A stretch of DNA of 38,671 nucleotides from Candidatus Coatesbacteria bacterium (GTDB lineage: Bacteria; RBG-13-66-14; B26-G2). Position numbers and translations under genes: made by a program. This document shows positions 2,149 to 30,682 of the stretch, one piece after another (within the stretch, counting starts at the first letter, position 1; the number at the start of each line of letters is the position of its first letter). The notes beneath the pieces were generated by a model. That model had not been told where the DNA came from. It ran no database searches and saw only the letters and a program-made list of their open reading frames with translations. The stretch lies in NCBI GenBank assembly GCA_003647715.1, contig QMNJ01000001.1, forward strand, positions 1 to 38,671, read 5' to 3'.

Positions 2149-2169
2149 TAAAAATCCTCCGTCTGTTAA

Positions 2170-2658: not shown

Positions 2659-2678
2659 ATAAATATATCTAAATCTGT

Positions 2679-4053: not shown

Positions 4054-4087
4054 ATTTGGTAATGACAACTTATAGTAATAATTAAAT

Positions 4088-4555: not shown

Positions 4556-4579
4556 ATTATTCCTCCCTGTAAAAATATG

Positions 4580-5095: not shown

Positions 5096-5116
5096 ATTAA
5101 CCTCCTTACCTTCTGT

Positions 5117-7326: not shown

Positions 7327-7344
7327 ATCTCATACCTCCATTAT

Positions 7345-12100: not shown

Positions 12101-15100
12101 ATCGTTGATAACGACAATCCACCAACCGTTGTCGTTATGGGTGTCAGCGGTGAACAAGCAGGAGATATAACTATTCCTTATGAGATAAGCGATAAAGAAG
12201 GCGACCCGGTCTCGTTATTTGTTGAATATTCAGTTGATGGGGGTGAAAACTTCTATCCAGCAACTATAACCGGCTCTTTGGAGGGCATCACCGTAGGCAG
12301 TTACAGAGGCGCCTTTACCTGGGAATCAGAGCGTGATATTAAGGGTGTTGATTCAACTCAAGTCCTGGTGAGAGTGACCCCATCTGACCTTGATGCGGGT
12401 GAACCAGGGATATCGCCTCCCATCTGGGTGGACAATAATACGCCTCCGACAATCTCTCTTTCAGATGTTTCAGGCGAACAGTATGAGGATGTTGTCATTG
12501 ATTACTCCATAGATGATATGGAATCAGACCTGGTGAGTTTGATATGTGAGTTTAGTGAGGACGGTGGTTTGAACTGGAAACCCGCTACGGTTGAGGGCTT
12601 TATTGAGGAGATAGACAGCACCGGTTATTTAGGCTCTGTGATATGGAGAAGCGATTCTGACCTGCCTGGCACTGACCAGATGGATATTAGGTTCAGGATA
12701 ACACCAGTTGATAATGATACTGGAACCCCTGGGGAGACAGAGAACTTCCATCTTGATAATAACGAACTTCCATCTATTATAGTTGAGGATATCACAGAAG
12801 AGCAGAGTGGTAATGTCTCTGTCTCATATAAACTGGAGGATGCTGAGTATGATGCCAGTATGATAAAGGTTGAATACTCAAGTGATGGTGGTTTCACCTG
12901 GCACCCCGCAACTGTTGCCACAAAACTGGAGATTGACCCCGCCCGATATGCTGGAACAGTTATGTGGACATCGGAGGCGGATTTACCAGCGATTGACAGC
13001 CACGATGTTATGGTGAGAATTACACCATTTGATAACGACGAGGGCTTCCCCGATGAGACCGACCCATTCCACCTTGACAATAATCAACCACCTGTTGCAG
13101 TGGTTGACGATATACTGGAAGAGGTATCTGAGGATGTGAGAATCTCGTTCTCGCTTGATGATAATGATGGGGATATACTGTCAATAGATGCTGAATACTC
13201 AACCGATGGAGGAGAAACATGGAACACGGCGACTATAACGGGTGACACCGTCAATCTACGACCTCCATATTCAGGCAGTATAATATGGAACTCTACACTT
13301 GATGTTCTGGGGTTAGACAGCGACGATGTGGTATTTAAGATAATACCATCGGATAATGATGTCGGTGAGGCGAAAGTGAGCAATAGTTTCCACCTGGACA
13401 ACAACAGTTTGCCCATATCCTTCGTGGCGGATATTCATGACGAGAGCTCGGGGGATATAGATATTGAATATTCACTTCAGGATGACGAGAGAGACCCGTT
13501 GAGTATCACCTGTTTCTACTCAGATGATGGTGGCTCTACCTGGCGAGAGGCAACCGTTTCGGGAACCACCACCGGTATAACCGAGGTGGGATATGAGGGC
13601 TCTGTAATATGGCATTCTAAAGAAGACCTATTAGGTGTAGATAGAGATGACATTATGTTCAAGGTGGTTGCCAGCGATAATGATACTGGTGAGAGAGCAA
13701 GTCCAGGTCTTGTAGTGCTTGACAACAATAACACACCGAGGGTTGAGGTCAATGCACCTGAGGGTGAGAGTTCAGGAATTGTCAGGGTTCCGGTTGATAT
13801 CTCGGATGATGAGGGTGATATGATTGAACTGGTATGTGAGTTTTCCATAGATGGTGGACAGGTATATCAGCCGGCAACAGTGATAAGTCCAAAGGGTCAG
13901 ATACACACCTCGGAGTATTCAACATTCATTGAATGGGATTCAATGAATGACATAGAGGGACTTGATGTTGAGGATGTGAGATTTAAGGTTATACCATGGG
14001 ATGAGGATGAGGGAGAGGCATCTGTGTCACCACCATTCCATGTTGATAACAATATTCCGCCGATGGTTGAAGTAGCAGGTATTACCGAAGAGGTTTCAGG
14101 TGAGGTCTTTGTTGACTTCACTATTGAGGATGTTGAGAATGATAATGTAAGTATGAAGGTTGAATATTCAATTGATGGTGGAAGAACATGGGCACCTGCT
14201 ACAATAGATGGCAATATGAATAATATAACAAGTTTGATGTATGCTAATACATTTGTGTGGAGAAGCGACCAGGATGTTCCATCAGCCGATTTGACCGATG
14301 TCGCCTTACGGCTCACCCCTAGCGATAGAGATGTTGGAGAGCCGGCTATTGTCTCGCCCATTCACCTTGATAATAACATACCTCCCGAGGTCACTGTTAC
14401 TATTCCCTCTGGTGAACTCACGGGTGATGTGGATATTGGCTATACAATCAGTGACCCCGAGGGAGACACTGTATCATTGATGATGGAGTATTCAGTAGAT
14501 GGTGGAATAACCTATAACGAGGCGACCATAAGTGGACAGATAAGCGGTATTACCCCTGCGAGATACTCTGGAGTTATAAAGTGGGATTCAGGTGCGGATA
14601 TTGCCGGTGTGGATTCAGGGGATATAAGATTACGGGTGGTTGCAATGGATGCGGATGAGGGTAAACCGTTTGAGAGCGAACTAATAAGTGTGGACAATAA
14701 CATTCCACCAGATGTATCTCTTGGTAGTTATGAATTCTCACCCACCGGTGATATAATATTGCTCTATCATCTCTCTGATAATGAGGGTGACAGTTTGAGT
14801 TTGGTGTGTGAATACTCGGAGGATGGAGGTTCCACATTCAAGAATGCAACCATTATGGGGCTTACCACCGATATAACACCAAAGGAGTATGATGGTGAAC
14901 TTATATGGGCAGTGGGAACCGACCTTCCGGGGAAGGTCCTATCAGATGTGCTATTCAGGATAACTCCGTATGATACAGAAGCGGGTCAGCCGGAGACATT
15001 GGCAATAGGTAAACTTGATACCAATATTCCACCTACCTTGAATGTTATTGAACCGTTTGAGGAGGTGTCTGGTGATGTGGCAATAAGTTACTCAATTTAT

Positions 15101-15668: not shown

Positions 15669-16826
15669 ATGGCTGAGGAAAAGAAACTGTATCTGAGAGT
15701 AAAAGGTGTTGAGCACGGACCCTTCACTGTGGAAGAGGTAAAGACCTGGATTGAGGGTGGGAAGTTCAAGCCAACCGACTATATAAGAATGGAGGGGATG
15801 AAGCACTGGGTGATGGCTAAGAACCTGGTTCACCTCAAGGAATATTTTGATGCCAAGAAGGAGGAGGATAGAAAGGGAGCATTTGCTTCATGGCTGGGAC
15901 AGGTTAGAGAAGGTAAGCCACCTATTGTGTTGACTCCCACTGGTGTAACGGAGGAGCATACAAGGATTGCAGAGGCAAGGAAGCAACTTGAAGAGGATGC
16001 GAAGCGACTTGAAGAGAGAGAAGCGGAGTTAAGGGAGCAGATAGAGAGGGAGTTAACCAAGAAGCAGGAGGAGGAGTTTGAGAGATTGCGTAAGGAGAGA
16101 GAGCGTCTTGAGGAACATCGGATGGAGTTAGAAGAAGCCGAGATAGAGATAAAACAGATGGAGAAGACGGTGAGGAGGAGAAGGAGAATACCCTTGATAA
16201 TAGCAGGGGCTGTTATAGTTGCAGTTATTGCGGTCAGCACTCCAATTGTTATTAATTACTACAAGAGCACGAAGGAGTTGCAGGAGGCAATCAATAGAAT
16301 AGACATAATTGACAATGAGATTAAGAACCTGATGGCTAAATTAGAAGATGCAGAGACAACGATGGAGAGAGAAGCAATAATGGAGAAGATAGAGGAGTTG
16401 AAGAAGGAGAGGGAGGAATTGGTCAAAGAGGTTGAGAAGAAAGGCGGAGGGGAACCAATTGAAAATATTGAGACCACCCTCGGTAGTGTCAGTATTACAG
16501 GTCCGTTAAGCATTATCGGTCCAGGGTCTGATGACCCATCAAGGAGCTCTTCTACGGTGGATTCCATCATCAGAGGTAGAATGGGTGCAATCAATAGTGT
16601 TTACAACCGAGAATTAAGGAGCAATCCATCGCTAGAGGGAAAGGTAGTAGTATCGTTTACTGTATCCTCTGATGGGACGGTTACCCGAGCTAATGTAATA
16701 TCCTCCACACTCAGCAACTCCAAACTTGAGAATGCAATTGTCTCTAATATTATGCTCGCTAGATTCCCAAGCACCAGCAGTGGTGATATTACGGTTACTT
16801 ATCCGTTTACCTTTGAAACAAAATAA
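15669..16826 (+). CDS. GYF_2 domain / coiled-coil / single TM / AgmX-PglI-type (TonB_C-like) C-terminal domain protein (GltJ-like architecture)
   Basis: N-terminus GPFTVEEVKTWIEGGKFKPTDYIRMEGMKHWVMAKNL has the GYF_2 pattern. An E/K/R-rich coiled coil follows, then RRRRR and the TM IPLIIAGAVIVAVIAVSTPIVINYY (aa 174-197). The C-terminus GRMGAINSVYNRELRSNPSLEGKVVVSFTVSSDGTVTRANVISSTLSNSKLENAIVSNIMLARFPSTSSGDITVTYPFTF fits the AgmX/PglI / TonB_C pattern. AAGGA SD present. The start lies 10 nt after the giant gene stop. Confidence 0.7.
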   Translation: MAEEKKLYLRVKGVEHGPFTVEEVKTWIEGGKFKPTDYIRMEGMKHWVMAKNLVHLKEYFDAKKEEDRKGAFASWLGQVREGKPPIVLTPTGVTEEHTRIAEARKQLEEDAKRLEEREAELREQIERELTKKQEEEFERLRKERERLEEHRMELEEAEIEIKQMEKTVRRRRRIPLIIAGAVIVAVIAVSTPIVINYYKSTKELQEAINRIDIIDNEIKNLMAKLEDAETTMEREAIMEKIEELKKEREELVKEVEKKGGGEPIENIETTLGSVSITGPLSIIGPGSDDPSRSSSTVDSIIRGRMGAINSVYNRELRSNPSLEGKVVVSFTVSSDGTVTRANVISSTLSNSKLENAIVSNIMLARFPSTSSGDITVTYPFTFETK

Positions 16827-16839
16827 TATGTAGTAATCT

Positions 16840-17970
16840 TTACCTTACAAGGTTTAATTTCTCTTTTACAAATTGCATTATCTCTTCGGGGTCTATATCC
16901 TCCCAACATATCATCCTAACGCAGTTCTCAAGGTATCCATCTCTATAACAGGGAGCACATTTTACACGGGGGCTGATAATAATTGAATTATCGTTTTTAT
17001 ATGGTCCATATCTAACTGGATTAGTCGGTCCAAAGATTACAATGGTGGGTGTCTTGAACGCAGACGAAATATGGAGGGGGAGGGAGTCATTAGTTATCAA
17101 TAGGCGAGAGCACTTTATTACTGCCGATACCTCTGGGATGGTAGTTTTACCAGTAATGTCCGTGATATTTGAAGATAGAGAGGCAAGTATTCTAGCCCTT
17201 TTTCTATCACTTTTGCTACCAATGATTAAAATTGGAATACTTAATGAACAAAGTTTCTGAACGAGTGCATTCCATTTGTTAATTGGCATTAATTTATTAG
17301 GCATCTTTGTCTTTGGGTTGTCGCCACCACCAGGTGCTATGACTATGTATTTCTCTGAGATGCCCGCATCCTTTAATTGCTTTTCTACTTTATTGGTCAC
17401 TTTCTCTGTGAGGAATATCTCAAGCCCTTTATCCTCAGGTTTACCACCGAGTGAGAGAACCACATTGAGGTATTCATCTGCCTGATGTATTGTCTCATCA
17501 TATTCAGTTGAGTAGTTCAGAAGTGCTCCCTCACCCCTGCGGTTTATTCCTGCCAGGATACCAGAGCAGATAATTCTAAATATCAGCGCGAAGGCAAATG
17601 AGTGATGAAATAGAATACAGAGGTCGTAGTCCTGTTTTCTTATGTCAAGCATTAGTTGCATTATTTTAATTGGGTTGAGAGAGATAAATATAGATTCATC
17701 CACTGTCAATATTCTGTTAATGTTAGGATTGGTAGCAATGATTGGTGATGACCTAATCCCTGTCAGGTAGTTAATCTCTGCATTGGGGAATAATCTTCTC
17801 AGGGTTCTCAGGGCGGGTGTGGTAAGAAGGACCTCACCAGTAGCCCATATTTTGACCACGAGTATCTTTTTAACCTTCTGAGGTCTTTTAGTTCTATTCT
17901 TAAAAGGACTTATGAGAGGAGATATTGCTCTACCGGCAAGTGAACTCAGATTTTCAATCATGAACGGCAT
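16840..17970 (-). CDS. Glycosyltransferase family 9 (heptosyltransferase-like)
   Basis: KILVVKIWATGEVLLTTPALRTLRRLFPNAEINYLT (GT9 N-terminal motif) and LITNDSLPLHISSAFKTPTIVIFGPTNP (GT9 C-terminal motif). Confidence 0.85.
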   Translation of the reverse strand: MPFMIENLSSLAGRAISPLISPFKNRTKRPQKVKKILVVKIWATGEVLLTTPALRTLRRLFPNAEINYLTGIRSSPIIATNPNINRILTVDESIFISLNPIKIMQLMLDIRKQDYDLCILFHHSFAFALIFRIICSGILAGINRRGEGALLNYSTEYDETIHQADEYLNVVLSLGGKPEDKGLEIFLTEKVTNKVEKQLKDAGISEKYIVIAPGGGDNPKTKMPNKLMPINKWNALVQKLCSLSIPILIIGSKSDRKRARILASLSSNITDITGKTTIPEVSAVIKCSRLLITNDSLPLHISSAFKTPTIVIFGPTNPVRYGPYKNDNSIIISPRVKCAPCYRDGYLENCVRMICWEDIDPEEIMQFVKEKLNLVR

Positions 17971-19363
17971 ATATCTCTACCTCCCCTATCTCTTTGAATA
18001 AATAGTAATCATCTTTGATTAAGACCTTTATCTTGTCAGGACTATCAATACCCAGGATGACCCATTGTGGTTTCTGATTCAGTATTATCTGGCACTGTTC
18101 TTCGTGTGAGGGCAGGTGATATTTAGTTCTCTCCTCCTCAGTCAGCAGGTCTGATATTCTTCTGGAGAACTCGCCCAGAAGTAGGTCAGGGTGAGGTATG
18201 CCACTGGTGACATATCCGCTCCACCAGGTTGCGACCACATCATCTTCGTCAACATATTCATCTGTGAAGTCCTGGACTTTCACTATTTCGCTGATTCCAA
18301 CCATAGGTTTAGCATAGTAATTCATAGCAACCCTCCCCAAAGGTCTAACAAGCCCTGTTATGATGAAAAAGAGCATTACAGTTGTTATCAAAATAGATTT
18401 CTTTCGTGATGCTGTTAAATGGTGGATTAAATGGTTGGATGAGATGGCGGTAAATGGAACCAATAATACCAGATACTGGAGTGAAGCAGATATGGGTATA
18501 ATACTGATAATAAGGATGACCAGGACATATAGAGATGATATGCGCTCTATCATTTCAGTTCTTCTGCGGAATAATCTAAATATAGCGATTACTGCGAGTA
18601 TGACTATTATCGCTGAGTTGGGGTCTAATGCCATTTCTTTCACTATGCTAAATCTCGTCATCTGCGACTTATAACCACTGAGTGCGGTGGTGTGAATGCC
18701 GATTACATTGAACAGTAGATAATCGGTGTATTTGAGTGTATAAAATATGATAGGTATTATGCCCGCTATTAATCCGGAGAGAAATGGATAGATATTCCAA
18801 CGATTATTAGTTCTATTGAAGCAGTATATAGGGATGATTATTATGGGTATTAGGATGATTCGTGAAGATATAACAAGACCTGTGAAGAATCCGGACAGAA
18901 GCGCAAATATCAATCGTTTGTTATTGATAGAAAGTATCAAAAACATTATTGAGATAATCAGTAGTAGTATGGTCAGTGAATAGACCTTGACAGGTGATAA
19001 CCAGTTGATTGTTAGATATGAGAAACTGAATATATAGAGTGGTAAACTGCTTGCTTCATTGGTTGTTCTGATTAGCAGGTATAAGATGGTAAGTGAGGTT
19101 ATTGCAAGGGCAACACTGAGGAATCTTCCGGCAATCAGAGATGTCCCGGTAACCTTGAAGAGCAGGGCATATAATAGTGTAGTTAGGGGTGTGTGTGGCA
19201 ATGGAATGTCTCTGTATAATTCATACCCTCTGTTCAAGAGATGTGCTGAGCCAATCCAGAATCCCTCGTCCCTATCCACCGGTCTGTTATATATCTGAGT
19301 TATTAATATAATAGAGAATATGATTAAGATGACTGCAAATGTTCTATTAAGGTTTTTTAACAT
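17954..19363 (-). CDS. Polytopic GT-C glycosyltransferase, PMT_2/ArnT (GT39/GT83)-like
   Basis: 469 aa with about 10 or more hydrophobic helices. The first loop DRDEGFWIGSAHLLNRGYELYRDIPLPHTPL resembles the acidic DE loop of ArnT/PMT enzymes. There is a soluble C-terminal domain. Its end overlaps the GT9 start by 17 nt. Confidence 0.65.
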   Translation of the reverse strand: MLKNLNRTFAVILIIFSIILITQIYNRPVDRDEGFWIGSAHLLNRGYELYRDIPLPHTPLTTLLYALLFKVTGTSLIAGRFLSVALAITSLTILYLLIRTTNEASSLPLYIFSFSYLTINWLSPVKVYSLTILLLIISIMFLILSINNKRLIFALLSGFFTGLVISSRIILIPIIIIPIYCFNRTNNRWNIYPFLSGLIAGIIPIIFYTLKYTDYLLFNVIGIHTTALSGYKSQMTRFSIVKEMALDPNSAIIVILAVIAIFRLFRRRTEMIERISSLYVLVILIISIIPISASLQYLVLLVPFTAISSNHLIHHLTASRKKSILITTVMLFFIITGLVRPLGRVAMNYYAKPMVGISEIVKVQDFTDEYVDEDDVVATWWSGYVTSGIPHPDLLLGEFSRRISDLLTEEERTKYHLPSHEEQCQIILNQKPQWVILGIDSPDKIKVLIKDDYYLFKEIGEVEIYAVHD

Positions 19364-19378
19364 AACCGATTTTTTCTG

Positions 19379-20593
19379 TTATTTCTTACTTCTTTGCCTT
19401 TTATGGTAATTATAGACATTGGTCAGGATTTTCTCTAATGCTTCAGCGTGTTTACCCCATGACTGCTCTTCTTGAATGTATCGGGTAGCATTATCAGATA
19501 GTTTCTGTCTTAATGATGAGTTGTCTCTTATCATCTTGATTGCCTGTGCATATTCATCCGGTTTATCGGGATTGACCAGAATTCCTCTCTCACCATAGCC
19601 GACTATCTTCTCCAGGGTGTCATATTTACTCACTACCACGGGGAGTCCACTTGCCAGGTATTCCATCAATTTTGCCGGTGCCCAGAAGAACCCAAATTCC
19701 TCCAGTGGTTTGTAATAGGAGGCATTGAACGGTGCAAGCCCCACATCGCTTATTGCCATAAGGTAGGGAATTGTTTTGTAGGGCTGGGGACCAAGATAGA
19801 GACAGTATCTCCCGAGACCATTAGAGTGGATGTATTCCATCAATCTTGCCTCTTCGCCCCCTCCACCCACGAGCAAGAAAAGTGCATCTGGAATAATCCT
19901 AGAGGTGTGATAGATAATATCAGGAAGGTCATATATTCCCTGCCATTCTCTGAATGAGCCGACGAATAAGATGAGAAACCTGTTATTTAGATTGTATTTT
20001 TCTATTATTTCTCTGGCGGTGTTAGTATTTCTTAGGTTCTTGTTAAATCTTGAGTGGTCTGCACCCCAGAAAAGTAGGTAGGTTCTGTCTCGTGCGAAGT
20101 CAGGAACTACAGTAGATATTGTGGTAATATTTGCACTTGACTGTCTAAACTGAAAGTTGACCCAGGATTTGAGGGGTGCTTTAATGATGGGCGATTTTAT
20201 CTTCCAGCGGTGTATAATCTCATCAACATGTGGACTGTTCACTTCCAGAACCAGAGGTGTTCTCTTCAGAAATGAGTATATTGCACCAAGACCCCCTGCA
20301 GTTATATATCTCTCCATAACTATATCAAAGTTCTTGTTAAGAAGTGATGGGAGATAGGGGATGGATATCAGTGGGAGTTTTATGCTAATGACCTTCTGCC
20401 AGACCCTGATGACCTTGACGCCATCAACATTTTCAAGGGCACGCTGGTCGTTGCGCCTTAAAGAGAACAGCGTTACCTGGTGTCCAAGTCGGACCAGATT
20501 CCTGGCGACCTCAAAGGTATGAACCGCACCAGCGTGGCTTGCGGGAACATCCTCACATGAGAAGTATAGTATTTTCAATGAGTGGTTATTCAT
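19379..20593 (-). CDS. Glycosyltransferase family 4 (GT-B, group 1)
   Basis: N-terminus HAGAVHTFEVARNLVRLGHQVTLFS and C-terminal E..FG.....KLMEYLASGLPVVVS (EX7E-type region). ATGA start/stop overlap with the upstream gene at 20590-20593. Confidence 0.85.
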   Translation of the reverse strand: MNNHSLKILYFSCEDVPASHAGAVHTFEVARNLVRLGHQVTLFSLRRNDQRALENVDGVKVIRVWQKVISIKLPLISIPYLPSLLNKNFDIVMERYITAGGLGAIYSFLKRTPLVLEVNSPHVDEIIHRWKIKSPIIKAPLKSWVNFQFRQSSANITTISTVVPDFARDRTYLLFWGADHSRFNKNLRNTNTAREIIEKYNLNNRFLILFVGSFREWQGIYDLPDIIYHTSRIIPDALFLLVGGGGEEARLMEYIHSNGLGRYCLYLGPQPYKTIPYLMAISDVGLAPFNASYYKPLEEFGFFWAPAKLMEYLASGLPVVVSKYDTLEKIVGYGERGILVNPDKPDEYAQAIKMIRDNSSLRQKLSDNATRYIQEEQSWGKHAEALEKILTNVYNYHKRQRSKK

Positions 20594-22230
20594 TCCGTTA
20601 TATATATCAATACCTCTGGACCCCTGGTTATTTTACCATCAGGTGAGAAATTTTTTATGAGTTTGTATTTCTCTTTGAGTATTCGGTGGTATTCATTCTC
20701 ACAGGGATATGTCTCCACGCCATAGTCAAGGCATTGGTCAATATAGAATTCTTTATCCCCAAAGACAGAGGTAATAACATATTTGATGTTATTACCTTCA
20801 ATAAATGATACAACATCTTTTATCGCCATGGATACCAGATAAAGGTTGTATTTCCTTCTGTTTTTTATCTCTTTTGACACGCTTATTAATATTCTAAACC
20901 TGATATTGCCCCGCCCCCAGATTGATAGTCGCTCTGCTGATTCAGGGTTCGGAATGAGTTGTGGTGATTCCACATCCGGTATCACCCGGTCAATGAGGAT
21001 GGCAGAATTTTCAGTAAGGTTCTCTTCTATCCACTGTCGTGCCATCTCTCTGGTGTCTGTCATCGCTGATTTTCTAACAGCAATGAAAGTGGGTATTGCA
21101 ATAAATAACCCAATAAAAGATATGAATAAAATTCCAATGTATTTATTCTTCCTCTTTATTTTGGAGAATAAATATTGAAGACCATTTCCTCCGATAATAG
21201 CTATGGGTGGGAGGGAAACAATAAGGTAGTGAGGTGGCACATACCTTCCAACTATGATTGCTATATTAAGTAATACTAATAGTATCAGAGGAATGAGTTT
21301 TCTTTCTCTGGATGCCATCATAAAGCCGAGAAGGGCAAATGGTATTATCACCGGGGTAATCAATCTTGGTGAGATGTTCACTGCAAACCAGCGGAGTGAG
21401 CTCATCAACTGGAATCCCACCTCTCTTGCTCTATCTATCTGTGTTTTTATATCCCCAATAGCGCTGTGATGGTCAATCACAATGAATGGTGAGAATATAA
21501 GGAACGATAGTGTAGTAATTACAACAAACATCAATGATAACCTGATATGAGATTTTACATCTGTTTTCTGTATGAAAATATATGCTATTACTGCGGGTAT
21601 TATCAGGAGGGCGTTGTATTTTGTTGATATAGCAGTGCCTGTGAAGATTGCTGATAGGATGATATTTTGTTTTGACAGATTATGGTTTCGGTAGATAAAG
21701 AATAATGCCATTGAGGTGAAGAGCAGAAGATATGCCTCTGGCTTTGCAAGGTGTGAGTAGCGTATAAACAGCGGTGATGTTATGAGTATTACCGAGGCGA
21801 ATATAGCAGTAGTGCGATTTGCTATCCTTGAAGCCATCAGGTATATAAAGGGTATAGAAAGAGTAGAGAGTATTATGCTGAAAAGACGGGATGTAATATA
21901 TATAACGGTTGGATTCTCAAGGTAGAGGAGCATATAATCGTGTGTAGTTATCACAACATTCAAAACTTTTAGAACCACGAATAGAATTCCAAGAACTATG
22001 AAGAGCATATATACAGGTAGTTGTGCTGGCCAGGTGAAAAGGTGTGGATTGAAATCGCCGGTTCCACAGTGGAGGGCTCGCTCCACAATCTGGAATTCAT
22101 CGCTCACCGTTAAACTAGGAAGATTACCTTTCAAACCAGGTAATGTGAGCGCAAGAGATGAGATGATAAGAATCAGTATAATATATCTGTCTCTCAAGGT
22201 TCTCTCCTCATTCTGAGAACTGCATTGCAT
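20590..22230 (-). CDS. Polytopic GT-C glycosyltransferase, PMT_2/ArnT-like (second copy)
   Basis: 546 aa with many TM helices, an early acidic loop (TVSDEFQIVERALH) and a soluble C-terminal domain. An alternative TTG start at 22197 would form a TTGA overlap with the YfhO stop. Confidence 0.6.
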   Translation of the reverse strand: MQCSSQNEERTLRDRYIILILIISSLALTLPGLKGNLPSLTVSDEFQIVERALHCGTGDFNPHLFTWPAQLPVYMLFIVLGILFVVLKVLNVVITTHDYMLLYLENPTVIYITSRLFSIILSTLSIPFIYLMASRIANRTTAIFASVILITSPLFIRYSHLAKPEAYLLLFTSMALFFIYRNHNLSKQNIILSAIFTGTAISTKYNALLIIPAVIAYIFIQKTDVKSHIRLSLMFVVITTLSFLIFSPFIVIDHHSAIGDIKTQIDRAREVGFQLMSSLRWFAVNISPRLITPVIIPFALLGFMMASRERKLIPLILLVLLNIAIIVGRYVPPHYLIVSLPPIAIIGGNGLQYLFSKIKRKNKYIGILFISFIGLFIAIPTFIAVRKSAMTDTREMARQWIEENLTENSAILIDRVIPDVESPQLIPNPESAERLSIWGRGNIRFRILISVSKEIKNRRKYNLYLVSMAIKDVVSFIEGNNIKYVITSVFGDKEFYIDQCLDYGVETYPCENEYHRILKEKYKLIKNFSPDGKITRGPEVLIYITE

Positions 22231-24626
22231 ATTATTAGGATTATTATAATAGTGCCAGTCAGAGAAATGTATAGACCTGTGGCGAATGTCGCTGGAAGAA
22301 ATTCAAGGACTATTAGGTGTTCACCCGGTTGGATGGGGATAGCCATAAGTCCGCCAAATGCCTCCTCTACTCCAACCTCAACTCCATCTATAAAACACCG
22401 CCAGCCCGGATATGAGAGTATGGATGTGGCTATATAACCACCTTCTCCAATGTAGGTCATCTCAATTTGGTTGTCTTTTATAGCATCTATAATGACTTCT
22501 CCACCATCTGTATATTCAGCAAGTGACCTACTTCCTGTGATAATCAGGTCATATTCAGGTATGAAGTTGTTGTCGGTAATATATTCTTCCATCTCGTCTA
22601 TGTCTTTGACATATATAAATCTTGATGGAGTGTAGATTAGAGGTGGGGAGTTAATAAGTTCATATAAATAGATTGTAAATGATTCTCTATCTATTTTACT
22701 TATCAGTTTCACTTCTTCACTAATAATTTGATGGGTAGTGAGTAGATACTTAATGGATAGCATCTCCAGGGGTTTGAGGGAGACGGGTTTGGTGGTTGGA
22801 GTGTATCGTGATAATGGGTAGGTGCCCCTGCCTCTCTCATGGAGGTTGGTCCAGACCAATCTTCTCATCAATGCTGTATATTGGTGTTCAAAGGACAGTC
22901 GGGGTATAGGGGTGCGAAGACCAAATAGTATATTTGTGTTTGGAACCAACAGTTCTGTTGAGAATCTTTCATCTGCTAAGTCCCAGCCCGACGAGAAGAT
23001 AGAATAGTTTTCAGCACTTTTAAGAGATGTGATACATTCAGGTGATTTGAATTGAGTATATGGTATAACCCTCTCTCTAAAAACTGAACTCTGAGCAATA
23101 TCTATGAGAGTAATGATTGATACCAGCAATAGAGGCATAATGGTTCTCTTTTTTCTGCTCCTGATGGCTATTGTGGATACACCGATAAACATAGCCACCA
23201 TTACTATCGTCCTCAATCGCCCACTGTTGGTAATGTTAAGGCATTCACCAGCCCTTTCAAGCATAATGGTTATCTTCTCCCGATAAGCATCAGTTGACAG
23301 TTGGTCAGCCGAGCCGTCTCTTTCTCCATACCTCATCGTTAAGTAGTTTGTTATGCGGTTGCCTTCCTCGGTTATAAGGAGATTTAGGATGATAATTGTG
23401 ATGATAAAGGCAATCTGTGTGATGACAAGCAGATTGATAAATGATTTCTTTATCTTTTCTCTATTCAGGGCATCTACACCCATGGCGGATAGGACTGATA
23501 GGGAGACCAAAGTGAGGAACATGTATCTTGCCGGCATTCTAAAAAAAGATAAGGGAGGTATTTTAAGAATGAGTTTTGCAAGTGGGTTGAACTTCCCCAG
23601 AGCCAAGAAGATGCCTATAAGGGTCATCAACACGAAGAACCATTTTATTCTGTTAAGTCGCTTATGATGGATGGCAAATACTGCAAGCATAGCGAAGAGA
23701 AATGGGATAAGCCCAATGGAGTAAGTGGATTCAAAGTATGAGCCAGAACCCCAGTATGTTTCTTTCACATTTCTCAGTGCGATATTGCCTGTGGTATTAT
23801 ATGCGGGTGGGTGAGGAGAAGAGCCAAATAGTGAATTGTCAAAGAAGGTTATCAAGTGTATGGGATTATATGATTGTTCAAGCCGATTGAAACCCGATTT
23901 TAACCTATCGGAGTGTAGAGCGAGTTCAAGTGAGGGCAGGAGTTGTATGGATGATACCACAAATATACCTGATATCAGTATGAAAGTAATTATCAATCTT
24001 CTTAGAAATTTTCGGTTTGAGGTGAACAATATGTAAAGTAGCGAGAGTGCAATACCCATTGAAGCGAACTGGAAGTGACCGCAGAGAAGCGATAGACCCC
24101 CAACCAGTATAAATAAACCATACCAGATTATCTCATTGCCTCTCTTTGCCTTTTCCGCGAGAAACAACAGAAGTGGTGTATATGAAGCACCTTCAATGAA
24201 AGGCATTATTCCAAGATGGAGGGAGAACTGGCTGGATGAGGCGAAGGCGAGACCGCCTATAACGGATGAAATTCTTGATAGACCTATGAGACGGATGAAG
24301 GCATACAGAGATAATCCAGCGAGTAGAAGGTGGACAAGTATGGTGATATTGTGGGCAAGCCAGGGAGGTAATAGGTATGAAAGAATAATATGCAAGGGAT
24401 GGGCAAAACCACCCTGACTCTCAGCAAAGGCGGGGTAGTTCAGAAGATGAGACCAGAGAGGAAACTCACCATTCTTGAGACCATTCTTCAATATTGTGAA
24501 ATATGGGTAGGAGAATGTTATGGCATCCTTGGCATTCAGGGGACCTAAGAGGAGTGGGAGATTCAGTATAGTTATGAAAAGAGCGATGAAAAGGTATGTT
24601 GTTAACTCTTTAGTTCTTTCGCTCAA
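22194..24626 (-). CDS. YfhO-family polytopic membrane protein (GT-C glycosyltransferase)
   Basis: 810 aa. The N-terminal FPLWSHLLNYPAFAESQGGFAHPLH loop is typical of YfhO. It has more than 10 TM helices plus a large extracytoplasmic C-terminal domain and a final TM. The TTG start forms a TTGA overlap with the ATPase stop (24623-24626). Confidence 0.72.
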   Translation of the reverse strand: MSERTKELTTYLFIALFITILNLPLLLGPLNAKDAITFSYPYFTILKNGLKNGEFPLWSHLLNYPAFAESQGGFAHPLHIILSYLLPPWLAHNITILVHLLLAGLSLYAFIRLIGLSRISSVIGGLAFASSSQFSLHLGIMPFIEGASYTPLLLFLAEKAKRGNEIIWYGLFILVGGLSLLCGHFQFASMGIALSLLYILFTSNRKFLRRLIITFILISGIFVVSSIQLLPSLELALHSDRLKSGFNRLEQSYNPIHLITFFDNSLFGSSPHPPAYNTTGNIALRNVKETYWGSGSYFESTYSIGLIPFLFAMLAVFAIHHKRLNRIKWFFVLMTLIGIFLALGKFNPLAKLILKIPPLSFFRMPARYMFLTLVSLSVLSAMGVDALNREKIKKSFINLLVITQIAFIITIIILNLLITEEGNRITNYLTMRYGERDGSADQLSTDAYREKITIMLERAGECLNITNSGRLRTIVMVAMFIGVSTIAIRSRKKRTIMPLLLVSIITLIDIAQSSVFRERVIPYTQFKSPECITSLKSAENYSIFSSGWDLADERFSTELLVPNTNILFGLRTPIPRLSFEHQYTALMRRLVWTNLHERGRGTYPLSRYTPTTKPVSLKPLEMLSIKYLLTTHQIISEEVKLISKIDRESFTIYLYELINSPPLIYTPSRFIYVKDIDEMEEYITDNNFIPEYDLIITGSRSLAEYTDGGEVIIDAIKDNQIEMTYIGEGGYIATSILSYPGWRCFIDGVEVGVEEAFGGLMAIPIQPGEHLIVLEFLPATFATGLYISLTGTIIIILIICNAVLRMRREP

Positions 24627-26344
24627 CTCAAACCTCTATGAAGATGGGAGAGTTTGTCTTTTCCTCTCCACTCAAAGTTCTCAAAGAAATCACCAGCACT
24701 TCTGGCAAAACCACCAAAGCGGATGGCAAGTGAGGTTATGTCTGGTCTAATTACCCCACTTTCATTGAGTGCATCGTCATCGGTAAAGACCGTCTCTGGA
24801 GCGCCAACCTTCACAATTCTACCACCCTTCATAAGCGCAATTCTATCTGAATACTTGAGGGCAAGCCATATAGAGTGTGTTATGCAGATTACTGTAATAC
24901 CTCTCTCTCTTAACTCAATGACCGTTTTCATAAGCGAGGTGACCTCATTATAATCAAGTCCGGTGGATGGCTCATCCAGTATAAGTATCGCCGGTTCAAG
25001 AGCCAGGATAGATGCCAGAGCAAGACGCTGTCTCTCACCCTTGTTCAACGAGTATGGGTCTTCACCCTCAAGTCCCGAGAGGTTGAGGTAGTTAAGGTAG
25101 GTCTTAACTTTTCTATCAATCTCTTTCTGTTTTAGTTTCTGTATTTTCAAGCCAAAGGCGACCTCTTCAAAAAGTGTCTCGGAGAATATCTGGTGGTCGG
25201 GGTCCTGAAATAGATATCCTATTATCCTGCACATCTTCTCCGGCTCAATATCAGACGGATTTACGCCAAGGACTTCAATTTTACCCTTCTGTGGTTTTAG
25301 AAAACCGGTGATGAGACCTGCCAGGGTGGTCTTTCCACTACCGTTGGGACCGAGTAAGGTGAATATCTCGCCTTTTCTGATGGTTAGTGATACATCTTTT
25401 ACAACATCTGTTTTACCATCATACGAGAAGAATACACTACTAATGTTAATAACAGGACGAAGGTTGGGTTCTTTTCTACTCTTTTTATTCTTATACTTTA
25501 TATCGCTTGCTTTTAGATAGTCATAAAGGTCTTCCAGGTTATGTATATTATTTTCTGGTGATAACAATGTGAGGTCAGGTGGTTTTACACCCGATTCTAT
25601 CAGTTTGAGTGGATAGTTAAGTATTGTATTCGCCCTCCCCTGATTTATTATCTTGCCATCTTTCAATACGAAGACCCAGTCATATCTTTCTGGTAGGATG
25701 ACCTCTTCATCGGCGATGATTACTGTCTTATCATTCTTGCTTAGGTTATGAAGCATATTGATAATCTCCACCCTACTGCTACTATCTATATCTGTGAAGG
25801 GTTCGTCCAGCCCGATTATATCTGTTCCTCCAGATAGAACTGAAGCGATAGAAAGCCGTTGTTTCTCCCCTCCTGATAAACTGGATGGGGTTCTATCTGA
25901 TAGGTGCTCAATTCCAAGCATTCTCAATGACTTTTTTGCTCTCTTAATTGTTTCATCCCTGGATATTCCCAGGTTAGAGGGGTAGAAGGCGGATTCATAT
26001 AAAGCATTAGTAGAGAATAACTGGTATTTGAAGTCCTGAAAGACCACACCATATAAAGCCGGTATTTCCTTCTGTTCAAGTTTATGGATGTCTCTGCCAG
26101 AGATGAGAATCTTACCCTTAATATCTCCTGGTATAAACCTGGGTATTAGACCCGCTATGGAAAGGAGCAGAGTTGATTTCCCCGAACCACTTCCACCGAG
26201 TATGAGGTTTATTGTTGAGTAGTTGATTTGCATATTAATGCCAGAGAGTGCAGGCGTTGTAGAACCTTCATATTGGAATGAGAGGTCTTTTATCTGTAAT
26301 GCTGGTATATGTTTTTGTGATGTGTATTGAGCCGGTTCTGTCAT
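24623..26344 (-). CDS. Fused double ATPase of the ECF/CbiO type (EcfA-EcfA')
   Basis: Two ABC cassettes: GGSGSGKST / LSGGEKQR / IGLDEP, and GPNGSGKTT / LNKGERQR / LILDEPS. Both carry the EcfA-type Q-loop regions VFQDFKYQLF and LFQDPDHQIF. Confidence 0.9.
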   Translation of the reverse strand: MTEPAQYTSQKHIPALQIKDLSFQYEGSTTPALSGINMQINYSTINLILGGSGSGKSTLLLSIAGLIPRFIPGDIKGKILISGRDIHKLEQKEIPALYGVVFQDFKYQLFSTNALYESAFYPSNLGISRDETIKRAKKSLRMLGIEHLSDRTPSSLSGGEKQRLSIASVLSGGTDIIGLDEPFTDIDSSSRVEIINMLHNLSKNDKTVIIADEEVILPERYDWVFVLKDGKIINQGRANTILNYPLKLIESGVKPPDLTLLSPENNIHNLEDLYDYLKASDIKYKNKKSRKEPNLRPVINISSVFFSYDGKTDVVKDVSLTIRKGEIFTLLGPNGSGKTTLAGLITGFLKPQKGKIEVLGVNPSDIEPEKMCRIIGYLFQDPDHQIFSETLFEEVAFGLKIQKLKQKEIDRKVKTYLNYLNLSGLEGEDPYSLNKGERQRLALASILALEPAILILDEPSTGLDYNEVTSLMKTVIELRERGITVICITHSIWLALKYSDRIALMKGGRIVKVGAPETVFTDDDALNESGVIRPDITSLAIRFGGFARSAGDFFENFEWRGKDKLSHLHRGLS

Positions 26345-27123
26345 AAGAAAAGTATGGAGAGTAAGACCATTACAATGGCAGGTGATAAACTTAAACCGAT
26401 TATTAAAGAGGAATTAGTATTGGTTGTGGCAACAATCTTCATAGGGGTATAGTCCATTACACCGATAGAGAGAAGGTTGCCCATAATATAACCCCCAATG
26501 GCGCCTATGAGAAGGAGCGTTAAACCGACCCAGAAGGTTTTCTTCCTATTGTAATGCTCTTCTCCTAGAATCTGAGGGTATAGGAGATTCCATCGTCTTA
26601 TTCTCTTGAATATGAGTTTTACTATGATGGGTGCAAGAATGCAGGAGGCGATGGCATTATTGAAAGCAATGATGTTTGATAGTGCTGCAAATGGTGCCAG
26701 ACCAATGATATCTGCTCCCCAGCCGATTATCATCCCGCAGGTTATACTTGCAAGTATGGAAGAGAAGATAAGAAGGATTATCCTTCTGGTTCCAATATCT
26801 GAATCAAAACGCGGTGGTTTTACAATTTTGTAGGGAATATAGGCAAACATGAAGTTACCAATGAACCCAAACAGAGAACCCCAGCCAAGCATACCACCGA
26901 ATATATCGCCCACAAGATTTCCTATTGCTGAGCCCCAGGCGGCTGCTGGTCCAAAAACAAATGATAGTGCAATGGGAATAGAAACAGCGGGTCTTATCTC
27001 GGTCACGCCGGGGATGAGAACAAGTGCCTTGAATGGAATCATAAGACCTGCGTATAGTGCGGCTGTGGTTGCTGTTAGAACTACCATTCTGGTGTCTCGC
27101 CACATGTGTATTAATTCACGCAT
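26341..27123 (-). CDS. ECF transporter S-component-like membrane protein (QueT-like) with an extra C-terminal 2-TM extension
   Basis: TAALYAGLMIPFKALVLIPGVTEIRPAVSIPIALSFVFGPAAAWGSAIGNLVGDIFGG resembles QueT/ECF S components. ATGA overlap with the ATPase gene. I prefer the ATG at 27123, because the track start (TTG at 27201) would run through both intergenic promoters. Confidence 0.5.
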   Translation of the reverse strand: MRELIHMWRDTRMVVLTATTAALYAGLMIPFKALVLIPGVTEIRPAVSIPIALSFVFGPAAAWGSAIGNLVGDIFGGMLGWGSLFGFIGNFMFAYIPYKIVKPPRFDSDIGTRRIILLIFSSILASITCGMIIGWGADIIGLAPFAALSNIIAFNNAIASCILAPIIVKLIFKRIRRWNLLYPQILGEEHYNRKKTFWVGLTLLLIGAIGGYIMGNLLSIGVMDYTPMKIVATTNTNSSLIIGLSLSPAIVMVLLSILFL

Positions 27124-27180
27124 AATATTCGTTCTCGGTAAGGTGTTAATATGATAACAAATTGGCACAGGTTTTTGAAC

Positions 27181-27189
27181 ATTATAGCA
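27181..27189 (-). promoter_or_regulatory. Extended -10 element (TGCTATAAT) for the minus-strand ECF/glycosyltransferase operon
   Basis: The reverse complement of 27181-27189 reads TGCTATAAT, about 58 nt upstream of the ATG at 27123. No convincing -35 element. Confidence 0.3.
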
Positions 27190-27190
27190 G

Positions 27191-27220
27191 TTGACATACA
27201 ATGGATGTAGAAAGTATAAT
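27191..27220 (+). promoter_or_regulatory. Near-consensus sigma-70 promoter of tRNA-Lys
   Basis: TTGACA (27191-27196), an 18-nt spacer, then TATAAT (27215-27220). The tRNA 5' end lies 11 nt downstream of the -10. Confidence 0.7.
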
Positions 27221-27230
27221 AAGTTGTATA

Positions 27231-27303
27231 GAGCCGCTAGCTCAGTAGGTAGAGCAACGGCCTTTTAAGCCGTGGGTCGAAGGTTCGATTCCTTCGCGGC
27301 TCA
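27231..27303 (+). tRNA. tRNA-Lys (anticodon UUU)
   Basis: A perfect 73-nt cloverleaf folded by hand: acceptor GAGCCGC/GCGGCTC, D arm GCTC-AGTAGGTA-GAGC, anticodon arm ACGGC-CTTTTAA-GCCGT, variable loop GGGTC, T arm GAAGG-TTCGATT-CCTTC, discriminator A. CCA is not encoded. A T7 run follows. Confidence 0.96.
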
Positions 27304-27340: not shown

Positions 27341-29029
27341 ATGTCTATCCCTATGGCAAAGGCAGTCGTAATCTATGTAAGAGGACTTGGACAGAACACT
27401 CTGAAGTGGGCACTCAAAAGAAAATTTCTTCCATATCTGAAGTCAACTATCAATGAAGGAACCATAAAGAGGGTAAAGCCATTTCTCCCTCTTGACCATT
27501 GGGTGAATGAGCTCTCCTTTTTGAGAGGTGATAACCCCGGTGTTTTCTCATACTCTGGTTATACCGGCTGGAACTGGGAAGAGATGAGACCTGAGAACTC
27601 CGGAATAGAAAGAATTGAGAGATTGTTCTTCAGAGATATTTTCTCTAACAGGGTGTATCCCATAGGAGATTTCAAGCATAGAATATTTACCATAGGTTTT
27701 GAGCAGACATTTACACCGAACTCAATGGGGATTAACTCTGTATCTATACCTCCAGTCAGGTTTTTAAATGGCTATGGAGAACCGGTTCTCTTTACCACTC
27801 AGGAGGAAGCGCTTGAAGTAAACGACACCGGCAAGGTTGTTCCCATAAAGGTGGCGGAGAATAGGGTTAAAACCGTTCTGGAAGGTATGATGGGGACAAA
27901 GTCGCATCTCTTATTTGAGGTTAGAGAGAACAATTTAATTATGTTAAGAACTGATAGGGATGAGGTTGAGGTCAGAAAGGGTGAGGTATCAAGACCTATT
28001 GAGATATTATTCAAAAACAGGTTGTTAAGAAGAATTAGAGGTTACTACCAATTTTATATCAGGTCAATAACCCCACACCTTATTGTAAGCGCCAGCCCCC
28101 TCTCTGTCCAACTTGAATCGCAGTTTGTTAAGCATACCAGACCAGGTGGTGTGTTCGCTAAGCTGGAAAGGGATGCAGGACCCATTATTCTTAGAAATCC
28201 ATATGCTATTCTTAATTCATTCATCAGTGGGTGGATAGACAGGAGAGCAATGTTAAGGTTATTAGAGTGGGATATAATGGGCTTGACTCAAATATTGATG
28301 AGGTCTACTTCTTGGAATAGCGAAGATGTGATAGTTGTTATGTTTCCCCATCTGGATATCGCCTATCACTGTATGGGGGGGGATGGTATATTATGGGCTG
28401 TTAGGGAGTTGGACTGGATTATTGGGTGGTTAAACCATATCTATGGAATAAGACCATTTGTGGTGGGAGATTTTTCTATGTCTAGGGTTAGGAAAGTGGT
28501 TGACCTTAACAGATATTTTTTGTCCCGTGGTATTATCAATCTAAAGAATATAGATAGAGTTCCTTATTCTGGCATTCATAATTTCTGGGATGATGTTGAT
28601 TGGGATAACACAATTGCGTTCTCACTTGGTGGTGGTAGGGTTTTCGTAAATAGGAAGAATTCTCAATTTAAAGATGGTGCAATAAAGAGAGAGATGGAGG
28701 ATAAGATTATTAGTGTAGTTAATGGATTGAATAGAATCTATGGAGGAGGGGTGAAGAGGGTAGTGAGAAAGTATGAGATATATTCAGGGGAACTCTTTCA
28801 CGAGATGCCAGATTTACTGGTATGCTTTGGTGGTGGTCTATTTAATGGTTATATGGATTTCACCGATTTGAATAACAGAATATTCAATGAGAAAGATGCA
28901 GTACAGTATGAACACTTATCGCAGGATAATGAGAGAAATGATGGTGTAATGCTCTCACCTGTGAAGACATCTAAGGATGCTATTTCAATAGATAGAGTAA
29001 TGGAAGATATAATGTCATTATTGGAATAA
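27341..29029 (+). CDS. Alkaline-phosphatase-superfamily (type I phosphodiesterase/nucleotide pyrophosphatase-like) protein, probably catalytically inactive
   Basis: Colinear by eye with the roughly 500-aa bacterial/archaeal AlkP-family proteins. VVIYVRGLGQNTLKWALKRKFLPYLKSTINEG matches ViviGlDG....l...g.lPnLk.l...G. VDWDNTIAFSLGGGRVFVNRK, VVRKYEIYSGELFHEMPDLLV and the C-terminal NDGVMLS...ISIDRVMEDIMSLL also fit. Start moved to the ATG at 27341, because the track ORF starts at a GTG inside the tRNA. No obvious SD. Confidence 0.45.
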   Translation: MSIPMAKAVVIYVRGLGQNTLKWALKRKFLPYLKSTINEGTIKRVKPFLPLDHWVNELSFLRGDNPGVFSYSGYTGWNWEEMRPENSGIERIERLFFRDIFSNRVYPIGDFKHRIFTIGFEQTFTPNSMGINSVSIPPVRFLNGYGEPVLFTTQEEALEVNDTGKVVPIKVAENRVKTVLEGMMGTKSHLLFEVRENNLIMLRTDRDEVEVRKGEVSRPIEILFKNRLLRRIRGYYQFYIRSITPHLIVSASPLSVQLESQFVKHTRPGGVFAKLERDAGPIILRNPYAILNSFISGWIDRRAMLRLLEWDIMGLTQILMRSTSWNSEDVIVVMFPHLDIAYHCMGGDGILWAVRELDWIIGWLNHIYGIRPFVVGDFSMSRVRKVVDLNRYFLSRGIINLKNIDRVPYSGIHNFWDDVDWDNTIAFSLGGGRVFVNRKNSQFKDGAIKREMEDKIISVVNGLNRIYGGGVKRVVRKYEIYSGELFHEMPDLLVCFGGGLFNGYMDFTDLNNRIFNEKDAVQYEHLSQDNERNDGVMLSPVKTSKDAISIDRVMEDIMSLLE

Positions 29030-30281: not shown

Positions 30282-30287
30282 GTGTAT

Positions 30288-30644: not shown

Positions 30645-30682
30645 TTTCTTAAAACCGGATGGTGTATTCTTAGAAATGAATT

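Follow-up and report, generated by a model that had tools for sequence, protein, structure and literature searches.

The three-component systems of transmembrane glycosylation consist of a GT2 polyprenyl-phosphate-sugar synthase, a GtrA- or Wzx-type flippase, and a GT-C transferase, and are exemplified by CsbB-GtcA-YfhO, GtlA-GtcA-GtlB, GtrA/B/V, and ArnC-ArnE/F-ArnT (PMC8035078). In the known systems of this kind, the flippase is often encoded elsewhere (PMC8035078). Energy-coupling factor (ECF) transporters, for their part, include QueT and QrtT, which import queuosine precursors (PMC11130926). Relatives of both are found side by side in a seven-gene operon on the minus strand (16840-27123) of a 38.7-kb stretch of DNA from Candidatus Coatesbacteria; this whole stretch is called the window here, and all positions of the operon are window positions. 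Rather than descending as a unit, the operon is a mosaic whose four modules differ in evolutionary range. Its gene content leads us to read it, with moderate confidence, as a glycosylation line for an envelope glycoconjugate, with a lipopolysaccharide (LPS)-like glycolipid as the probable acceptor and with a separate, incomplete importer attached. The genes of the operon, in the order of transcription, and the region that precedes them are as follows.

26341-27123, minus strand: ECF S-component, QueT-type, 260 aa (PF06177, E 8.5e-16); first gene of the operon
24623-26344, minus strand: fused EcfA-EcfA' ATPase (AA'), 573 aa, with two nucleotide-binding domains, NBD1 and NBD2 (TIGR04520, TIGR04521, two ABC_tran domains)
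22194-24626, minus strand: YfhO-type GT-C, 810 aa (PF09586, AlphaFold/Foldseek); TTGA overlap with the ATPase gene
20590-22197, minus strand: ArnT/PMT_2-type GT-C, 535 aa, with a C-terminal soluble domain (PMT_2 and PMT above cutoff)
19379-20593, minus strand: GT4, GT-B fold, cytoplasmic, 404 aa (PF00534 Glycos_transf_1, PF13439 Glyco_transf_4)
17954-19363, minus strand: ArnT-like GT-C, 469 aa (profile evidence; PMT_2 below cutoff)
16840-17970, minus strand: GT9, heptosyltransferase-like, 376 aa (PF01075, E 3e-34)
27124-27230, no strand assigned: leader and promoter region, 107 nt, common to the operon and a divergent tRNA-Lys gene

A check against the list of open reading frames (ORFs) found seven consecutive minus-strand ORFs at 16840-27201, all intact, and the genes and junction strings reported by the first-pass annotation of this DNA were recovered as described. 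The S-component and ATPase genes overlap by ATGA (26341-26344), the ATPase and YfhO genes by TTGA (24623-24626), the YfhO and 535-aa GT-C genes by TTGA (22194-22197), and the 535-aa GT-C and GT4 genes by ATGA (20590-20593). A 15-nt gap (19364-19378) lies between the GT4 and 469-aa GT-C genes, and the latter overlaps the GT9 gene by 17 nt (17954-17970). The S-component starts at ATG 27123, which gives 260 aa, a length equal to that of its orthologues, and the operon thus spans 16840-27123. For the PMT_2-type GT-C, two starts had been proposed: an upstream ATG at 22230, giving 546 aa and a 37-nt overlap with the YfhO gene, or an alternative that forms the TTGA. It is the second that holds, TTG 22197 being the conserved start of a 535-aa protein with which the orthologues align from that residue.

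The species of the window is also represented by GCA_029932485.1, and the seven genes stand in the same order in three further lineages (L007/L008, L015, and GCA_052745195.1, the last of these split over L010 and L016). The overlaps in these relatives are, in order, 4, 4, 11-14, and 4 nt, followed by a gap of 65-108 nt, where the window has 15 nt, and then by an overlap of 17 nt. Identity to the window proteins is 77% for the S-component, 75% for GT4, 56% for AA', 54-56% for YfhO, 55-57% for the 535-aa GT-C, 54% for GT9, and 47-49% for the 469-aa GT-C. Because order and overlaps recur at protein identities of only 47-77%, the arrangement is real and not due to chance. As judged from its layout, this is a genuine, co-transcribed seven-gene operon of one Coatesbacteria subclade, all of whose genes are intact and evolve under purifying selection. 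A terminator scan gave nothing convincing inside it, with seven terminator-like sites against 7.8 expected from a shuffled control. In the four lineages, the entire block from a tetratricopeptide repeat (TPR) gene through the gene for a 2177-aa protein is syntenic, and conservation within that block therefore says little about which of its genes cooperate.

The modules come apart outside the subclade. The first comprises two genes, S and the fused A-A', from a dedicated ECF importer for a micronutrient, of the QueT type, whose T gene would have been lost from the locus. The second is a lineage-restricted GT-C pair, the YfhO-type and the ArnT/PMT_2-type enzymes, and the third the well-conserved GT4. 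The fourth is an old pair, the ArnT-like GT-C and GT9, travelling together in Coatesbacteria, Zixibacteria, and related uncultured bacteria. The linkage of the glycosyltransferase genes to the ECF genes, whose conservation in relatives the first-pass annotation had set as a criterion, is kept in the close relatives, which are fully syntenic, but not beyond them: it is missing from five outside S-AA' loci and from 12 distant GT-C loci. Only the 469-aa GT-C and GT9 stay together outside the subclade.

The families of the glycosyltransferases proposed at first pass (YfhO, PMT_2-type, GT4, and GT9) were recovered with Pfam, except that the 469-aa protein, being below the Pfam cutoff, was placed by profiles. 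All three polytopic proteins were assigned to GT-C, as predicted, and none to a non-glycosyltransferase family; the assignment comes from AlphaFold and Foldseek for the YfhO-type protein, from Pfam for the 535-aa protein, and from a profile match to ArnT for the 469-aa protein. The 810-aa protein matches YfhO (PF09586) with 59.2 bits against a cutoff of 28.5 (E 3e-16), an alignment limited to residues 714-788, and the same domain is carried by all but two of its 44 detectable homologues. It has about 13 transmembrane helices and a further one at the C-terminus, together with a beta-sandwich domain outside the cytoplasm. An AlphaFold model built from a 36-sequence alignment reached a pLDDT of 85.8 and a pTM of 0.89, and the top 18 matches found with it by Foldseek in the PDB are all GT-C enzymes. 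AftD is the best of these (1e-7) and ArnT the fourth best (1.3e-4; TM-score 0.54 normalised to ArnT), and AglB, PglB, STT3, EmbC, and AftA are further matches; a direct sequence search of the protein against the PDB gave no match. On the strength of the model, the 810-aa protein is assigned to the GT-C enzymes. A candidate acidic residue, D34, follows the first transmembrane helix; a D stands nearby in the gappy 36-sequence consensus, where it was matched by eye and is not a column with at least 90% conservation.

The 535-aa protein passes two cutoffs, those of PMT_2 (62.2 bits against 26.1, E 9e-17) and PMT (42.9 bits against 22.7, E 6e-11), and has about 8-11 hydrophobic segments. Directly after the first transmembrane helix it carries the motif S-D-E-F-Q-I-V-E-R-A, which is invariant in four orthologues. 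These matches identify it as a GT-C enzyme, for which a direct sequence search of the PDB with the family gave no match. Both members of this second module are confined to the subclade, beyond which neither has relatives above about 25% identity. Orthologues of the 810-aa protein with 53-56% identity occur in this lineage alone, the next homologue being at 25%, and a metagenome scan with the 535-aa family returned this lineage only. Word-index homologue searches with the YfhO-type and 469-aa proteins likewise yielded, at high identity, the same lineage only.

Like the three-component systems, the operon has GT-C enzymes, here both YfhO-type and PMT_2-type, with external C-terminal domains and, in the 535-aa and 469-aa proteins, an acidic motif in the first external loop. 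By analogy with those systems, the three GT-C enzymes should draw on polyprenyl-phosphate sugars at the outer face of the inner membrane. Unlike in those systems, where a GT2 usually adjoins the GT-C, the operon contains neither a GT2 nor a flippase. The first-pass annotation had pointed this out for the operon, and it extends to the whole window: a Pfam scan of the ORFs and tblastn detected no GT2 in its 38.7 kb, and no GtrA- or Wzx-like flippase was present among the scanned ORFs. A further difference is that three GT-C enzymes are chained here with two cytoplasmic GT-B enzymes, in a host that is a probable diderm from an uncultured phylum.

The fourth module is the one with a history of its own. 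The 469-aa protein scores 23.7 bits with PMT_2, below the cutoff of 26.1 (E 6e-5), but the evidence from profiles is clear. Its family aligns with that of the 535-aa protein over 360 columns (hhalign probability 91.8%, E 7.5e-7), and PMT_2 was matched by 46 of 61 sampled members. With a threshold of E<=1e-10, a full HMMER search found 712 cluster representatives, almost all of which are full-length proteins of 470-530 aa. The profile of the 61 sequences matches ArnT (5EZM) with an E-value of 8.5e-7 over residues 8-350, and TMEM260 with 2.4e-6. D32, E33, and G34 are at least 90% conserved, and this D-E-G aligns to the P-D-E-G of ArnT ('PDEGRY'). In 14 sequences the first transmembrane helix is followed by the longer, invariant motif R-P-x-D-R-D-E-G-F-W, whose family-wide form in these GT-C proteins of about 500 aa is R-P-x-D-x-D-E-G. 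The 469-aa protein thus qualifies, by profile, as a GT-C enzyme. A direct PDB search with it gave a marginal TMEM260 match and nothing else, and AlphaFold, given an alignment of four sequences, produced a model of too low quality (pLDDT 47) to be relied on. The comparison with ArnT (GT83; 5EZM/5F15, from Cupriavidus metallidurans) is supported by this profile alignment, by the structural match of the YfhO model, and by the company of the distant relatives described below, which includes a GT9 and a membrane sulfatase-family enzyme. Against it stand very low sequence identity and the lack of arnABCDEF-type donor genes nearby.

GT9 is matched over its full length by PF01075 (118.7 bits against a cutoff of 22), and its closest solved relatives are 3TOV (Glycosyl transferase family 9, 9e-25) and WaaF (1PSW, 3e-10). 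As in WaaC, WaaF, and WaaQ, the GT9 domain is full-length, the N-D-S-x-P-x-H motif and the overall GT-B layout are kept, and the best NCBIfam matches are to heptosyltransferases III, II, and I.

A scan with the 469-aa family against one genome per GTDB species identified 12 distant loci (L017-L028), with identities of 25-35%, in other Coatesbacteria (including the complete chromosomes CP070755 and CP070633), in Zixibacteria, and in unnamed metagenome-assembled genomes. In 11 of the 11 loci that reach past the GT-C gene, a GT9 gene lies directly 3' of it on the same strand. To our knowledge, such an obligate pairing of GT9 and GT-C genes is not a feature of waa clusters. In most of these loci the pair is followed by a 244-aa lipoprotein and then by a sulfatase-family protein of about 600 aa with four transmembrane segments. 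No YfhO, 535-type GT-C, ECF gene, or homologue of the 2177-aa protein was found within 10 kb in the 12 loci. A copy of GT4 with 59% identity is present in one of them, the Coatesbacteria locus L017, at 7 kb from the GT-C/GT9 pair and beside a MoxR ATPase.

Several of these neighbourhoods can be described further. In L026 (9938-15132), the four-gene module consists of the ArnT-like GT-C, a GT9 of the 'G-E' type discussed below, the 244-aa lipoprotein without family match, and the sulfatase-family enzyme with its four transmembrane segments. In loci of the Zixibacteria type, a TMEM260-like GT-C with TPR repeats and a ManC-like nucleotidyltransferase (GDP-mannose pyrophosphorylase) are both encoded just upstream of the module. 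On chromosome CP070755, locus L022 contains at 5086-6150 (plus strand) a 354-aa GT2 with C-terminal transmembrane helices, the architecture of GtrB and ArnC. The GT-C/GT9 pair is located 3.8 kb downstream of this gene, which is without a counterpart in the window. A Por_Secre_tail protein, of the type IX secretion system type, is encoded near it.

With GT-C, GT4, and GT9 enzymes confirmed in a tightly coupled operon, the idea of an envelope or protein glycosylation line is a fair reading of the locus, within which an envelope glycolipid is favoured over a protein acceptor. In the scheme that we prefer, GT4 and GT9 would extend a lipid-anchored envelope glycan at the cytoplasmic face from nucleotide sugars, the acceptor most likely being an outer-membrane glycolipid similar to the LPS core. 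Once the glycan has been exported, further sugars from polyprenyl-phosphate donors would be added at the periplasmic face by the three GT-C enzymes, and the GT2 synthase and flippase for these donors would be encoded elsewhere. A lineage-specific rearrangement, and not a common pathway, would have brought the ECF genes under the same promoter as the glycosyltransferases. Four points argue, by analogy, that the acceptor, at least for the old GT-C/GT9 pair, is most likely a glycolipid of the outer membrane that resembles the LPS core. First, the distant partners of the pair are a lipoprotein and a membrane sulfatase-family enzyme, and company of this type is usual for enzymes that modify lipid A and the core (ArnT, EptA, heptosyltransferases). 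Second, the GT2 of GtrB architecture is located close to the pair in CP070755. Third, the ManC-like enzyme is found near the pair in Zixibacteria-type loci. Finally, there are signs of an outer membrane, which the host is likely to possess given a TonB_C/AgmX-type protein in the window and the Por_Secre_tail protein in L022.

Some observations weigh against this scheme. The window lacks lpx, kdo, waaL, and ADP-heptose genes, and the LPS assignment consequently rests on family analogy and distant neighbours. GT9 is below every curated heptosyltransferase cutoff of NCBIfam, with 121 bits against 170 for TIGR02201, 86 against 135 for TIGR02195, and 84 against 185 for TIGR02193. In addition, W-A-x-G-E is invariant in 14 GT9 orthologues where WaaF (1PSW) and 3TOV have G-D. 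Because the cutoffs are failed and Glu replaces Asp, GT9 may use another donor or acceptor than the heptosyltransferases, although its activity, with a carboxylate kept at G-E, is plausible. Moreover, the YfhO-family enzymes that have been characterised act in Gram-positive bacteria on teichoic acids or proteins, and not on LPS (PMC8035078).

The same observations leave room for another envelope polymer, such as an exopolysaccharide (EPS), a capsule, an S-layer anchor, or a peptidoglycan-linked glycan. GT4 and GT9 would then build a polyprenyl-linked oligosaccharide that the GT-C enzymes branch or ligate. GT4, whose Pfam matches are above cutoff (PF00534 77.8 bits, E 9e-22; PF13439 42.9 bits, E 7e-11) and which reaches no curated NCBIfam equivalog cutoff, has weak matches that include EPS, PEP-CTERM, and teichuronic-acid glycosyltransferase families. 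AftD, the best structural match of the YfhO model, is a cell-wall arabinan-branching enzyme, and GT9 is not a curated heptosyltransferase. However, neither an initiating phosphoglycosyltransferase nor Wzx/Wzy, an ATP-binding cassette (ABC) exporter, or a chain-length regulator is encoded in the window, and the lipoprotein and membrane sulfatase-family partners of the pair fit a decoration of the lipid A/core type better. We therefore regard such a polymer as unlikely, though it deserves to be kept in mind, and continue to prefer the LPS-like glycolipid.

A protein acceptor was also considered. The first-pass annotation had singled out as a candidate substrate the product of the convergent gene downstream of the operon:

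9125-15658, plus strand: giant secreted protein, 2177 aa, with an FG-GAP propeller and many BNR-like 'S-x-D-G-G-x-T-W' repeats

Under a protein O-glycosylation scheme, the PMT_2- and YfhO-type GT-C enzymes would modify this protein, or other surface proteins, in the periplasm. The PMT and TMEM260 relatives of these enzymes are protein O-mannosyltransferases, and TMEM260 is among the best solved matches of the 469-aa family. The only NCBIfam models matched by the 810-aa protein are PgfM1 and PgfM2, of a streptococcal protein-glycosylation system. This Pgf system of Streptococcus mutans is composed of the GT2 PgfS, the two YfhO-type GT-C enzymes PgfM1 and PgfM2, and the epimerase PgfE, and like the present operon it has two or more GT-C enzymes in one operon. 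As for the giant protein, it has a signal-anchor N-terminus, and its place beside the operon is kept in the four lineages although what follows on its far side varies: the window has rpoN there, and L015 and L016 have a 291-aa gene and DUF3467. It is exactly 2177 aa long in all four, is 72% identical to the L015 copy with two gap positions, and is more conserved than most of the operon glycosyltransferases.

Each of these points has its counterpart. The PgfM matches cover only the last 70 residues and reach about 32 bits, against cutoffs of 1400-1500, and the operon differs from Pgf in having no PgfS-like GT2, no epimerase, and no identified Ser/Thr-rich target. Being convergent to the operon, the giant-protein gene is not co-transcribed with it, and their adjacency is seen only inside the fully syntenic block; none of the 12 distant loci has a homologue of the giant protein near the GT-C/GT9 pair. 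The protein also contains no Ser/Thr-rich disordered linker of the sort targeted by PMT- and YfhO-type protein glycosylation, its richest 40-aa stretch having 30% S+T; N-x-S/T sequons number 15 in its 2177 aa. Finally, GT9 and GT4 are without an obvious role in such a scheme. Beyond adjacency, no positive support was found for the giant protein as a substrate, and protein O-glycosylation, of this or of other surface proteins, looks improbable. The preferred acceptor thus remains the LPS-like glycolipid.

The adjacent gene on the same strand as the giant-protein gene (15669-16826) encodes a protein that combines a GYF_2 domain and a single transmembrane helix with a TonB_C domain of the AgmX/PglI/GltJ type at the C-terminus (NF033768, E 7e-25). 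It resembles adventurous-gliding-motility proteins of myxobacteria, and it and the giant protein may be functional partners.

It remains to place the two ECF genes. The S-component matches QueT (PF06177) with 59 bits against a cutoff of 33.7, and consists of a core of about 170 aa with two additional C-terminal transmembrane helices. Its homologues, spread over many phyla, number more than 1000; they measure about 260 aa and are 42-58% identical, and relative to these it has no lineage-specific insertion, and it is 77% identical to the L007 and L015 orthologues. The fused ATPase passes the cutoffs of TIGR04520 (358 bits against 315) and TIGR04521 (355 bits against 330). Alignment with S-AA'-T loci showed that the signature of NBD2 is degenerate (LxKGERQR) throughout the family, T-containing homologues included, and one ATP site is therefore probably non-catalytic. 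The H-loop His of NBD1 is lost in the window lineage only, which has I-I-A-D-E-E-V at residues ~213-220 where homologues have E-H-E-T-E.

The 'ECF-type transporter' of the first-pass annotation is thus present in part: the S-component and the fused ATPase are there, but the gene for the T-component is absent, and the locus does not encode a full transporter. No ORF of the window matched EcfT/CbiQ (PF02361), and tblastn with two CbiQ proteins from homologous loci found nothing in the window, L001, L007, L010, L015, L016, or L012; in relatives, the roughly 20 kb that surround the operon likewise lack CbiQ. A hidden EcfT domain in the YfhO-type or another operon protein was considered and rejected, since none shows sequence similarity to CbiQ. 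The context was compared with five S-AA' loci outside the subclade (L012, L013, L014, L032, and L033). The order is S-AA'-CbiQ in L013, L032, and L033, and AA'-CbiQ-S in L014, where it lies within a cobalamin-biosynthesis cluster; L012, from TA06, has S-AA' without a T gene. CbiQ is hence present in four of the five contexts and glycosyltransferases in none, and the linkage of ECF and glycosyltransferase genes is confined to one Coatesbacteria subclade. Like the dedicated (group I) ECF transporters of the QueT/QrtT type, the locus has a QueT-domain S-component, a fused A-A' that passes its cutoffs, and the order S then AA'. Unlike them, it has no T gene, no preQ1 or other riboswitch, a replaced H-loop His in NBD1, and translational coupling to a GT-C gene. 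Searches with Rfam 5' of the S-component gene found no riboswitch, both at gathering cutoffs and at E<=1, only a tRNA being matched; a scan of five related or homologous loci returned, beside tRNA, an unrelated TwoAYGGAY match in L014 and nothing else.

From these comparisons, S-AA' is most likely a functionally separate micronutrient importer that works with an EcfT encoded elsewhere. Three points support this independence: homologous S-AA' modules in other phyla occur without glycosyltransferases, a T-less S-AA' is found in TA06, also without them, and S (77%) and AA' (56%) stay under purifying selection. On the simplest account, a dedicated ECF operon would have been broken 3' of ecfAA' by a rearrangement, and glycosyltransferase genes would have become attached at the break. 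Two features of the locus sit uneasily with this separation. The 4-nt overlaps of S, AA', and YfhO in four lineages make the ECF genes obligatorily co-expressed with the glycosyltransferases, and the position of yfhO, exactly in the slot of ecfT, together with the lineage-only loss of the H-loop His, would fit a functional recruitment.

In such a recruitment, the T-less ECF module would have come to serve glycosylation, and YfhO or a different GT-C would stand in for EcfT as its membrane partner. Its possible roles include the ATP-driven uptake or salvage of a sugar or cofactor, and the translocation of a lipid-linked donor, that is, the role of the missing flippase. The position of yfhO is indeed exact: directly 3' of ecfAA', with a 4-nt overlap, it stands where ecfT stands elsewhere, AA' and CbiQ likewise overlapping by 4 nt in L032, and this junction is kept in four lineages. 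The lack of CbiQ in the window and within about 20 kb in relatives, the lack of any flippase in the operon, and the lack of an upstream riboswitch, unlike in many QueT genes, point the same way, as does the His lost in this lineage only. Nevertheless, the S protein is an ordinary member of its large family, and the degenerate NBD2 signature is shared with T-containing homologues. The TA06 locus indicates that local loss of T needs no glycosyltransferase partner, and CbiQ is similar to no operon protein. S-components are small-molecule importers, and we know of no ECF module that acts without the T-component as scaffold. Recruitment is for these reasons very unlikely; its more specific form, in which a YfhO-type enzyme is the membrane partner and the module energises donor translocation or imports a compound for glycosylation, would be highly improbable. 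A separate importer is the reading that we retain. Overall, the first-pass interpretation is partly supported, its glycosylation line standing better than its substrate and its transporter.

Coatesbacteria and Zixibacteria are uncultured, and in the literature no description was found of the GT-C/GT9 pair or of the envelope biology of Coatesbacteria. The seven-gene operon is a lineage-specific mosaic of ordinary parts and not a new kind of system, so its importance is modest and it opens no long-standing question. What is useful is a core of two genes, conserved and so far uncharacterised, which encode an ArnT-like GT-C (about 500 aa) and a 'G-E' variant of GT9. If this core does modify an LPS-like glycolipid, it would represent a new pathway of outer-membrane decoration in these lineages. 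The ECF part, an importer operon apparently broken and spliced onto an unrelated pathway, calls for caution in inferring function from tight operon structure.

A few further features of the window can be mentioned. The leader region of the operon contains weak sigma-70-like matches on the minus strand (27179-27151 and 27149-27122). In front of the divergent tRNA-Lys(UUU) gene (27231-27303, plus strand) stands a sigma-70 promoter that matches the consensus perfectly (TTGACA, 18 nt, TATAAT; 27191-27220, plus strand); this tRNA gene is found at the same place in L007 and L015. Beyond it, and also divergent from the operon, 27353-29029 (plus strand) encodes a soluble protein of 558 aa that is about 51% identical in the same lineages, lacks transmembrane segments, and matches nothing in Pfam or NCBIfam. 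It was considered as a sulfatase-family partner or as EcfT and rejected on these grounds and because tblastn found no similarity to the query families fam2 and fam3 or to CbiQ. On the other side, 127-8685 (minus strand) is a housekeeping block with rpoN, a dihydrolipoyl-dehydrogenase-like oxidoreductase, lipoyl synthase, hpf, a ptsN-like EIIA, and hprK, followed by mannose-type EIIA/EIIB, HPr, and enzyme I, a regulatory phosphotransferase system set typical of Gram-negative-type bacteria. Finally, two small genes lie upstream of efp at 30282-31033 (plus strand), one encoding a Roadblock/LC7-domain protein (E 1e-5) and the other a protein without family match; both are kept in L007, after the TPR protein.

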